Of a stretch of 8,958 nucleotides of DNA, positions 2,387-5,951 are shown piece after piece. The position numbers were made by a program, and so were the translations under genes. This DNA is from Octopus sinensis. Taxonomy: Eukaryota. A model generated the notes under the pieces. That model made no database searches and was not told the origin of the DNA. It saw nothing but the letters and a program-made list of their open reading frames with translations. Numbering within the stretch: the stretch's first letter is position 1; every line of letters begins with the position of its first letter. Where the stretch lies: NCBI RefSeq assembly GCF_006345805.1, contig NW_021828159.1, positions 1 to 8,958 of the forward strand, given 5' to 3'.

Positions 2387-2895
2387 GTACAAACATATAA
2401 ACAGTAAAAAAATATATATATAAACAGTGGAAAAATAATATATAACAGTGAGAGACAGGACAAGGAGAACAAGATAAGAAGGGCTGTTAACGCCAGACGA
2501 AAAAAGTATTGCAAACGCTGGATTATCGTGGAAGGAGAGAGGGAAAATTTGTCGACCAGAGCCTTACAAGGCGGGCGAGAAAAGACAGGATAGCAGTTAC
2601 GACGGAAGTATCGTCGCAGATGGATGACGGGAATGGGGGAGGAGGAGCAAGAGGAAGAGAGAGAAGAAGGGGAATGGTGCGAGGAGACCAGGAAGAATGG
2701 TGAAAGGGAGAGAGAGAATGAAGAATGAGAGAGAGAGAGAAGAGGACAAATTAAGTGAGGGAAAAAAAGACGAAAAAGGGAAGGGGGGGGAGAGAAAGAA
2801 AGAAAGATCAGAGTCGCGTGAGAGTTAATTATCAAGGCTAACTTGATAAACAGAACAATCTTACTTATAGGGTGCGTGCGTTTAGTCGTATAATA

Positions 2896-3244
2896 TGTTA
2901 ATAAAATAGAATATATGCATATATAAACATATATGTACGTACCTACTCTACATGTACAATACACCATATAGTGTACAGTGACACCAAAAAGACGTCGAAC
3001 ACATAGAGAGACGAAACACATAGACACAAACCAAGGAACAGACAAGCAAAAAAAGGAGAGATACAGGACAATAAGCACAACGAAAAATCCCCTTCTTCAG
3101 TCGCTAAATTTCATCTACTAACGTTCGAAGGATAAAAGCGAGACGTATAATTCGAAGAAAAATTCCTTCCCGCGAAAAGCAAATCAATTAAAATTCTGAG
3201 ATCTTTCGCAGAGGGGTAAAAAAAAAAGCAAGACGGTAACGACA
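2896..3244. repeat. Direct repeat, copy 2
   Basis: Aligns end to end with 2028-2386; differences are mostly small indels. Confidence 0.95.
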
Positions 3245-3289
3245 TATATATTATATATATTATATAATATATATATATGTATGTATATA

Positions 3290-3490
3290 GTTGGAATTTA
3301 CAAAAAAACAAAACAAAAAAAACAAACGAACCAAAAGACGGATGTGTAAACAACAAATAGATGTATTAGTTTAACGCTCGGGAAGTGAGAAAGTATTTTA
3401 CATTTCGAGCCTACGCTCTTCAACAGAAAGGAACACAGAAATATACAGAGAAAGAAAATTTTAAAATATGGTTTCGTGGCTAGCAACCAA
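3290..3490 (-). mobile_element. Short interspersed repeat, family P, copy 2
   Basis: Homologous to 1806-1994; the core at 3361-3440 matches 1861-1940 without gaps. Confidence 0.65.
3395..3430 (-). ncRNA. Minimal type I hammerhead-like ribozyme, variant core
   Basis: - strand reads CUUU CUGUUGA A GAGC-GUAG-GCUC GAA AUGU A^ AAAU. Stem II is perfect and the triplet is GUA. Stem III ACGU has become AUGU, consistent with CpG decay. Confidence 0.5.
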
Positions 3491-3661
3491 GCAATCAATC
3501 ATATGTGTTTACACGTCAGTATTAGGAATTTTCAAACAGCACTTTTCGGACCATACATGCTAATGTATATGTTTTCATTCATGTGCGTTAACTACACCAT
3601 TAGAGCACTTTAGCTCTTATTTTTAGCTATGTACATGTTTCCTAATACCCTAGTCACATTT

Positions 3662-4074
3662 TCTCATTTCTCATTTACTTGTTTCAGTCATTTGACTGTG
3701 GCCATGCTGGAGCACCGCCTTTTAGTCGAGCAAATCGACCCCAGGACTTATTCTTTGTAAGCCTAGTACTTATTCTATCGGTCTCTTTTGCCGAACCGCT
3801 AAGTTACGGGGACGTAAGCACACCAGCATCGGTTGTCAAGCGATGTTGGGGGGACAAACACAACACACACACATACACATATATATATATACATATATAT
3901 ACATATATACGACGGGCTTCTTTCAGTTTCCGTCTACCAAATCCACTCACAAGTCTTTGGTTGGCCCGAGGCTATAGTAGAAGACAATTTGCCCAAGGTG
4001 CCACGCAGTGGGACTGAACCCCGGAACCATGTGGTTCGTTAGCAAGCTACTTACCACACAGCCACTCCTACGCC
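3662..4074 (-). mobile_element. tRNA-derived SINE, family A, full-length copy
   Basis: Head GGCGTAGGAGTGGCTGTGTGG at 4074 through to an (AAATGAG)n tail. Probable target-site duplication CATTT at 3657-3661 and 4074-4078. Confidence 0.92.
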
Positions 4075-4234
4075 ATTTAGTAACATTTGTCATTCTTCTT
4101 TTTGGTGAAACATTGCCAACTGCTGTTTAAATTAATTTTATATATACACATTGGCGAATCGTTAAATCAACCAATAAGTTGGATGAGGAAACCATAAATA
4201 ATAATGGCGAAGCGAATCGGAGAAGAGCCAAACA

Positions 4235-4303
4235 ATCGAGTGATCTTAACTGATGAGGCAACGGAAACTGCCGAAACTGATGTCAGTATTAGGAATTCTC
4301 GAT
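4235..4303 (+). ncRNA. Type I hammerhead ribozyme (predicted cleavage GUA^ after 4288)
   Basis: Core CUGAUGA at 4250-4256 and GAAA at 4273-4276. Stem II is GGCA 4257-4260 / UGCC 4269-4272. Stem III is ACUGA-UG-UCAGU 4276-4287, with A4288 as H17. Stem I is UCUUAA 4244-4249 / UUAGGA 4289-4294, continued past an internal loop by AUCGAG 4235-4240 / CUCGAU 4298-4303. Confidence 0.9.
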
Positions 4304-4503
4304 CGGCACCGTTCGGACGATTATCATACCTGTTAGCATAAATGTTTTCATTCATGTGCGTTAACTACAGCATTAGAGCTGTTTAGCTCTTATTTCTAGC
4401 AATGTGGGTGTTTCCAAGACCCTAGTCATACTTGGTGACAATTATAATTGTCCTTTTTGATGAAATATTGCAACTGTTGTCTATATTAATTTTATATATA
4501 CAG

Positions 4504-4660
4504 TGTGTGGTTGTGTGTTAAGTAGCTTGCTAACCAGCCACATGGTTCCGGGTTCAGTCCCACTGCGTGGCACCTTCGGCAAGTGTCTTCTGCTATAACC
4601 TCGGGCCGACCAAAGCCTTGTTAGTGGATTTGGTAGACGGAAACTGAAAGAAGCCCGTTG

Positions 4661-4697
<37 letters not shown>

Positions 4698-4916
4698 GTG
4701 TGTGTCTTTGTGTGTCTGTGTTTGTCCCCCTTGCATTGCTTAACAACCGATGCTGGTGTGTTTAAGTCCCCGTCACTTAACGGTTCGGCAAAAGAGACTG
4801 ATAGAATAAATACTGGGCTTACAAAGAATAAGTCCCGGGGTCGATTTGCTCGACTAAAGGCGGTGCTCCAGCATGGCCGAAGTCAAATGACTGAAACAAG
4901 TAAAAGAGTAAAAGAG
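4504..4916 (+). mobile_element. tRNA-derived SINE, family A, near full-length copy
   Basis: B box GGTTCAGTCC at 4551-4560, internal microsatellite at about 4661-4720 and a (TAAAAGAG)2 tail. Aligns with 5399-5813. Confidence 0.92.
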
Positions 4917-5336: not shown

Positions 5337-5398
5337 GGCGGTGCCCCAGCATGGCCACAGCTCGTGAGCTGAAACTAGCTAAAATAAAATAAAAATAA
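5337..5398 (+). mobile_element. 5'-truncated retroposon 3' end sharing the family A tail
   Basis: GGCGGTGCCCCAGCATGGCCACAGCTCgtGAGCTGAAACTAG followed by (TAAAA)n; parallels 5755-5797. Confidence 0.75.
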
Positions 5399-5562
5399 GC
5401 ACAGGAGTGGCTGTGTGGTAAGTAGCTTGTTTACCAACCACATGGTTCCGGGTTCAGTCCCACTGCTTGACACCTTGGGCAAGTGTCTTCTACTATAGCC
5501 TCGGGCCGACCAAAGCCTTGTGAGTGGATTTGGTAGACGGAAACTGAAAGAAGCCCGTCGTA

Positions 5563-5593
<31 letters not shown>

Positions 5594-5813
5594 GTGTGTG
5601 TTTGTGTGTCTGTGTTTGTCCCCCTAGCATTGCTTGACAACAGATGCTGGTGTGTTTGCGTCCCCGTCACTTAGTGGTTCGGCAAAAGAGACCGATAGAA
5701 TAAGTACTGGGCTTACAAAAGAATAAGTCCCGGGGACGATTTGCTCGACTAAAAGGCGGTGCTCCAGCATGGCCGCAGTCAAATGACTGAAACAAGTAAA
5801 AGTGTAAAAGAGT
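5399..5813 (+). mobile_element. tRNA-derived SINE, family A, full-length copy
   Basis: A box TGGCTGTGTGG at 5408-5418 and B box GGTTCAGTCC at 5451-5460. Also has CORE-like ACCTTGGGCAAGT, an internal microsatellite at about 5561-5618, a 3' hairpin at 5776-5789 and a short repeat tail. Confidence 0.93.
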
Positions 5814-5951
5814 ATATTAGATCAGTGTCTGTGTGTCACTTTGAAAATTATATATTTTCGAACGGGAATTCAGTAACGCCATCTAGCCTAGCAGCTACTC
5901 TGTGCTGATAAAGGACAATAACCCAGAAACTGGTCCACAGATGTTGCTTTA

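Follow-up and report, generated by a model that had tools for sequence, protein, structure and literature searches.

The closest described counterparts of the sequence considered here are the metazoan non-LTR retrozymes, the hammerhead ribozymes in the pseudo-LTRs of Penelope-like elements and the satellite hammerheads of newts and axolotl. In the accessible parts of the reports on these systems, cleavage as a dimer through a palindromic helix III is already well established (PMC4209133, PMC6765202), partial tandems and inverted 5' copies are described as the insertion layout of Penelope elements (10.1101/2021.04.23.441226), and the optional tail of these elements, which insert at A+T-rich targets, is placed between two start sites of the reverse transcriptase, or RT (PMC11167929). 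As far as the available portions of two further sources go, a non-LTR retrozyme is called "active" when two consecutive units have complete ribozymes (Li et al. 2026), and a tertiary contact between helix I and loop II, common but not universal, uses an unpaired U at position 1.7 (PMC11875169). Here we describe a locus in 8,958 nucleotides of Octopus sinensis DNA (contig NW_021828159.1; hereafter the window), which we read, with a probability of roughly 0.85, as an old and decayed 1.6-unit copy of a dispersed family that is likely a non-autonomous non-LTR retrozyme mobilised by Penelope enzymes.

In Table 1, we have listed the features of the locus together with related motifs found elsewhere in the genome. 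An initial annotation had placed a type I hammerhead at 4235-4303, and its letters and coordinates could all be verified, the core being complete. A strict type I descriptor, consisting of the exact core with 6 bp of stem I, 4 bp of stem II and 3 bp of stem III, matches the window at this site alone and has no match in 1000 dinucleotide shuffles of it, and the 69-mer folds with z = -2.96. The bases expected of a hammerhead core (C3 U4 G5 A6 N7 G8 A9, G12 A13 A14, the A15.1-U16.1 pair and H17) are present, as are three helices around it with helix I open and a G10.1-C11.1 pair; judged by its letters the sequence is a real and complete hammerhead motif, for which self-cleavage is predicted. The further claim that all three stems close stands for stem III only as 4 bp with a 4-nt loop, and falls for 5 bp around 2 nt in the monomer; ViennaRNA gives stem III 4 bp in the monomer and 12 bp in the dimer, and the predicted minimum-energy fold of the monomer differs from the hammerhead. 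The Rfam hammerhead models, suggested as a check, did not bear the motif out, with no match reaching its gathering score in a 181-nt region or in the whole window; the best among the Rfam matches listed for the 181-nt search was Hammerhead_3 (RF00008), at 23.4 bits against a gathering score of 48.5 (E 0.0049), which is a type III model set against a type I motif. Across the whole window Rfam gave no hammerhead, and its matches were microsatellite-driven miRNA only. Stem I position 1.7 is A4295 and not the U of the usual loop contact, a U comes next, at 1.8, and loop II of the family ends in A.

Table 1. Features of the octopus locus, with related motifs at other loci of the genome
Feature	Position	Strand	Basis or remark
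Upstream unit, 5'-truncated, first part	3513..3661	+	starts within stem III
SINE-like repeat within upstream unit	3662..4073	-	5-bp duplication, 3657-3661 and 4074-4078
Upstream unit, rest of 3' part	4074..4146	+	abuts the complete unit head to tail
Complete repeat unit	4147..4500	+	354 bp, 37% G+C; ends at distal preferred 3' end
Optional 3' tail	4447..4500	+	stretch between the family's two preferred 3' ends
Long extension of stem I	4217..4317	+	two further helices in family; partly decayed
Type I hammerhead ribozyme motif (stems Ia, Ib, II, III, core)	4235..4303	+	descriptor and covariation
Stem Ib	4235-4240/4298-4303	+	letters
Stem I internal loop, 3x3	4241-4243/4295-4297	+	letters
Stem Ia, including one U-G	4244-4249/4289-4294	+	letters
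Core CUGAUGA (C3-A9), intact	4250-4256	+	letters; core columns conserved
Stem II and loop	4257..4272	+	pairing arms 4257-4260/4269-4272; 4 bp in window copy
GAA	4273-4275	+	letters
Stem III, self-complementary	4276-4287	+	letters, folding
A17	4288	+	cleavage predicted between 4288 and 4289
Motif of young Penelope family	L135 5845-5880; also L038, L047, L051, L052, L053, L141, L143		
Unrelated type I hammerheads	L138 7021, 7416; L142 7129, 6629; L034; L143 6006	L138 +, -; L142 +, -; L143 -	

The motif is one of many in the octopus genome. When the unit was searched against the genome, 1,351 first-look candidates came up, and the 40 of these that were scored showed 78-85% identity, and the locus set on which much of what follows is based comprises 104 loci, or 89 distinct ones after the removal of 15 duplicates; in five copies the unit measures 352-358 bp with 34-38% G+C. 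The core pattern matches the genome 134 times, as compared with once for a control, and these matches revealed two sister subfamilies, B and C, beside subfamily A, which were then sampled with whole-unit queries. Core conservation and stem covariation among other copies, which the initial annotation had set as a test, were both found. Non-CpG core columns in subfamily A mismatch at 4.3% against 10.3% for a base-matched background (151 segments), and the core mismatch is 5.4% against 10.1% (P = 0.006) in 90 segments obtained with queries from outside the ribozyme. In the 71 of 81 extracted motifs that form the covariation set (10 with indels were left out), 84% of stem cells pair and 162 double changes are seen against 85 in shuffles, a number reached by none of 500 shuffles; the count of covarying pairs is weak alone (18 against 15.2; 47/500 shuffles), and RNAalifold independently selects stem I.

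The comparison between subfamilies covers 29 A, 26 B and 30 C copies, with five rows left out (two near-duplicates and three A/B intermediates). Pairs switch on both sides at four positions of stem I and one of stem II: the commonest pair in A, B and C, respectively, is AU, UA and CG at I.2, UA, CG and CG at both I.3 and I.4, CG, CG and UA at I.5, and AU, UA and UA at II.4. In the core no positions vary between the subfamilies other than 7 and 17, which are free, and the arms of stem III differ in 0 of 9 columns against 56 of 231 for background, which is not significant alone. The covariation consists of a few events inherited by many copies. We take the conservation of the core to reflect many source copies that needed a working core, with neutral decay later.

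The window locus holds one complete hammerhead motif and one half-site in its 1.6 units. The upstream unit starts 9 nt before a second cleavage site (3521/3522), and its half-site at 3513-3520 reads as had been claimed. The repeat that splits this unit, which we take to be a SINE, belongs to a family with at least five copies, in both orientations (1-321, 339-546, 3662-4073, 4507-4916 and 5395-5817), two of which sit within or directly beside the retrozyme copy. A short hairpin at 4147-4166, right after the unit junction or distal 3' end, is kept in subfamilies A, B and C and is, from its sequence, a possible candidate for an enzyme recognition site; at the junction of a young Penelope family (one comparison) a TA run is likewise followed by a hairpin. 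Pol III A and B boxes had been suspected near 4204 and 4311, and were rejected as conserved neither in the family nor in B and C.

Elsewhere in the family a head-to-tail junction is present in 31 of the 89 distinct loci, an inverted upstream (5') piece in 37, and one or the other in 57; long tandem arrays were not seen among the 89, and only two of them have two ribozymes. The 3' ends were surveyed in 58 distinct loci (of 74 fetched) that had been selected by core patterns alone. They fall at unit positions 280-310 in 13 loci and at 330-351 in 29, four of which continue into a further unit, while 1 lies between the clusters and 15 are scattered earlier; the two preferred ends are thus about 50 nt apart. 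When the flanks are viewed directly, most of the clustered 3' ends are followed by TA, CA or TG repeats, and a microsatellite is found at 39 of 54 ends as compared with a background of 13.5%, a comparison that is partly circular in that the unit itself ends in TA repeats. At the other side, none of 30 loci retrieved with a downstream query begins at the cleavage site, and several begin 5-30 nt past the cut, within stem I on its 3' strand, a position that enzyme stalling and an edge effect of the query would explain equally well. Four sequencing runs, two guessed to be RNA and two unlabelled, contain many diverged family pieces and no spanning contig; they have no bearing on expression.

The connection to Penelope-like elements and retrozymes drawn in the initial annotation is borne out by the unit size, the G+C content, the partial tandems, the inverted 5' pieces and the two 3' ends. 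The unit is non-coding, lies within 150-450 bp, is low in G+C and has one type I hammerhead, as in non-LTR retrozymes, and the tandem organisation of that class is found in the form of partial tandems. Partial tandem, inverted 5' copy and optional 3' tail all occur in the family, and its two clusters of 3' ends match the tail that the available part of PMC11167929 places between two RT start sites. The genome has potential helpers: 147 of the 150 candidates scored, out of 5,029, are GIY-YIG matches, and intact ORFs of 775-781 aa with RVT_1 plus GIY-YIG are present elsewhere, with small hammerhead-like motifs of their own. The unit has no DNA match to 30 GIY-YIG loci and none above noise to 10 longer Penelope loci; with a layout that is Penelope-like and no matched partner, mobilisation in trans is what the layout suggests.

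The life cycle that we propose for such a family would begin with the transcription of tandem copies, whose ribozymes would associate in pairs by way of their palindromic stem III and cleave after GUA. The unit-length RNA would be circularised by a host ligase, by analogy with the mussel, coral and axolotl retrozymes, and a Penelope enzyme (RT and GIY-YIG endonuclease) would nick A+T-rich microsatellite DNA. Reverse transcription would start at either of two fixed internal sites, some 160 and 210 nt downstream of the cut, and an RT running round the circle, or along an uncut multimer, would give rise to more than one unit. In the folding model, the 3' arm of stem III might also mask the core of monomer and circle by pairing with it, so that circles would stay closed and cutting would be limited to dimers.

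This pairing arises from the sequence of stem III, in which the 5' arm repeats 4249-4255 letter for letter and the 3' arm is thus able to pair with the core, so that the monomer, with stem III arms that repeat the core start, is predicted to lock its own core. In ViennaRNA the 3' arm of the monomer pairs with the core at a probability of 0.995 in a continuous 7-bp helix, the locked monomer lies 4.2 kcal/mol below the hammerhead fold, and the dimer reaches its minimum energy as a double hammerhead joined by an intermolecular stem III of 12 bp (-44.6 against twice -20.8). Of the 42 core-intact A copies, 35 have a lock probability above 0.5, as do 5 of 7 B copies and 3 of 7 C copies, and an open core appears in none of five circular unit folds. 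The perfect palindrome that had been postulated for the ancestor is supported by the aligned segments, of which 67 out of 89 carry C at 4281, with a 14-nt palindrome in 23 and a 12-nt one in 19 of the 42 core-intact A copies. The tree suggests that this palindrome in A and the CCGA-capped stem in B and C may be alternative states of one lineage, with intermediates preserved.

It appears doubtful, all the same, that the family worked as a self-locking switch throughout, i.e., that single or circular RNA shuts the core, that dimers free both cores through the palindrome and that the insertion ends record two start sites of a Penelope-helper RT. In favour of the lock, no more than 1% of 300 random palindromes conceal the core to the degree that the natural one does; against it, 10% of 500 have an equally large energy gap. 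An unrelated natural hammerhead (at locus L138) is also mispredicted, by 6 kcal/mol, the dimers of only 13 of 42 decayed copies fold as double hammerheads, and two natural two-ribozyme loci fold with mixed or non-hammerhead pairings, all under an energy model that ignores Mg2+ and tertiary contacts. Because the lock keeps five of the six stem I pairs in register, covariation cannot decide the matter, and given the controls the lock prediction is suggestive only. A rather more credible alternative, if one somewhat short of an even chance, is that the ribozyme of this same family cuts well as a monomer, with the palindrome and the predicted lock as by-products. Its stem III is 4-5 bp long, as compared with 1-2 bp in the dimer-dependent motifs of PMC4209133, and most invertebrate retrozyme hammerheads cut as monomers (PMC7229834), as reported in the accessible sections of both; in addition, stem III of subfamilies B and C is capped by a CCGA loop that is not palindromic, and nearest-neighbour folding undervalues three-way junctions, as the L138 control indicates. 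Against monomer cutting stand the continuity and high probability of the lock helix, its rarity among random palindromes, its recurrence in most core-intact A copies and the maintenance in subfamily A of two different perfect palindromes. Cutting favoured by dimers in some form seems to us about an even bet, and the modelled lock-and-dimer switch itself rather unlikely to be real.

We think it very improbable that each unit is a pseudo-LTR, solo or truncated, belonging to an autonomous Penelope-like element with a coding body that was missed in sampling or has since decayed. The insertion layout and tail are the same as in pseudo-LTRs, and retrozymes are derived from Penelope pseudo-LTRs in published work (10.64898/2026.07.22.740005, in its available part). 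Nevertheless, at the junctions examined the 3' end of one unit joins directly to position 1 of the next with no ORF or coding body between them, the one pair of units 4.3 kb apart (L175) is a local duplication without an ORF, none of the 40 GIY-YIG and Penelope loci compared matches the unit in DNA, and units flanking an RT plus GIY-YIG ORF were not found. ORF fragments at L009, L113 and L115 were considered as a coding body and, read by eye, look like neighbouring insertions not joined to the unit; those at L213 and L263 were judged by their coordinates.

A mobile family of retrozyme type, as we prefer to read these copies, has evidently been decaying for a long time. Divergence from the column majority has a median of 11.4% and a minimum of 6.2% in 102 segments longer than 150 nt, the window copy standing at 10.9%, and CpG columns mismatch at 26%. 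The tree of 69 copies is star-like, with mean branch lengths of 0.109 (terminal) and 0.010 (internal), subfamilies B and C are as old as A, and a search for young copies of the family found none, the best non-self matches being 91-92%. Changes private to the window copy lie in stem II, in the loop of stem III and in distal stem I. C4268 (T in 69 of 79 segments) breaks the fifth pair of a stem II that has 5 bp and a 6-nt loop in the family, T4281 is a CpG decay within the palindrome, the change at 4292 makes a wobble pair, and 4219, 4221, 4222, 4230, 4310 and 4311, in distal stem I, all differ from the column majority. The description of the motif as active or recently active finds no support, given the star phylogeny, the divergence of about 11%, the lack of any young copy, the private changes and the single complete ribozyme; with one complete motif and a half-site, the locus also falls outside the "active" class of Li et al. 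2026. The family looks extinct and the window copy is most likely a fossil, of which, in the folding model, a dimer may yet show slow cleavage in vitro. That it is transcribed and cutting today, or retained for a host function, is the least probable reading of all, for although it combines an intact core with pairing in each of the three stems, as do 19 of 68 motif-spanning segments (the core is intact in 41), its divergence is average for the family, an intact core is unexceptional, its private changes break stems, its upstream partner is truncated and split by a SINE, and no gene is seen in the window.

Other hammerhead-like motifs and repeats occur nearby and in related loci. A minimal motif is present as two decayed copies on the minus strand (3399-3426 and 1899-1926), with 4-bp stems I and II, an extra base after position 9, a 4-nt palindromic stem III and a core U in place of the normally invariant A6. 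Exact matches to this motif number 5,759 in the genome against 0 for a control, GIY-YIG fragments lie near 3 of 8 sampled loci, and the motif is, by sequence, a very abundant family with a variant core. Between its two copies falls a direct repeat of about 400 bp (2020-2421 and 2889-3278, 91% identical) around a purine-rich stretch, which could belong to a further Penelope-type repeat or reflect a duplication in the assembly. At 1296-1720 there is an A+T-rich inverted repeat, some 420 bp long, that is also present beside the Penelope loci L135 and L142. A young two-ORF Penelope family has a frame of 781 aa, which comprises RT and GIY-YIG and contains a CxxC linker, and upstream of it a 479-aa frame without a Pfam match; its hammerhead-like motif is minimal, has U at position 3 and A at position 8, and lies about 90 nt before a TA-rich 3' end. 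Further unrelated type I hammerhead families have palindromic stem III sequences of 6-8 nt, and at L138 a Penelope ORF is preceded by two such hammerheads, one in sense and the other in antisense orientation.

As far as searched, a non-LTR retrozyme is new for cephalopods, and the family would extend the group to Octopus sinensis. A word search finds neither octopus nor cephalopods in the main texts of PMC7229834 and a 2026 preprint, and among the papers listed on octopus hammerheads and cephalopod Penelope ribozymes none was seen to report the family, though supplements, Repbase, Dfam or Lunse et al. 2017 may hold it; among titles and the beginnings of abstracts on inactive conformations with a palindromic helix III, none concerns a stem III that mimics the core. 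By itself the window copy is an ordinary fossil. The insertion ends of the family (two fixed 3' sites, inverted 5' pieces and partial tandems) independently support the proposed movement of retrozymes by Penelope enzymes. If the lock were true, it would explain how a circle that bears a ribozyme avoids re-cutting itself, and would constitute a small natural RNA switch responsive to its own dimerisation.

Measured against the accessible parts of the literature, the family shares with the metazoan non-LTR retrozymes (PMC7229834) one type I hammerhead per unit, the lack of an ORF, head-to-tail copies, a G+C content under 45%, Penelope elements in the same genome and, at about 350 bp, a unit size like that in the mussel Mytilus (350-390 bp), the coral Acropora and the axolotl (Rtz_331/353); the mussel motif, like that in the window, is without the usual loop-contact base. 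It differs from them in its dispersed insertions of 1-2 units where published retrozymes form arrays, in its inverted 5' pieces and two fixed 3' ends, in a stem III of 4-5 bp that repeats the core start, and in that it looks extinct. With the newt and axolotl satellite hammerheads, which are dimer cutters (PMC7229834, same parts), it has in common a palindromic stem III and a predicted double-hammerhead fold; the monomer there fails with a helix III of 1-2 bp, whereas the octopus monomer is predicted to fail through pairing of the 3' arm with the core. In the parts available of the reports on Penelope pseudo-LTR hammerheads (PMC4209133, PMC11167929, 10.1101/2021.04.23.441226), the type I fold, palindromic helix III, partial tandems, inverted 5' copies, optional tail and A+T-rich targets are all shared with the octopus family. 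Unlike pseudo-LTRs, the octopus units flank no ORF, their two 3' ends are about 50 nt apart rather than 30-40, and their ribozyme is of the large canonical form, in which position 9 is followed by 10.1 without an extra base, where the pseudo-LTR kind is a minimal variant.
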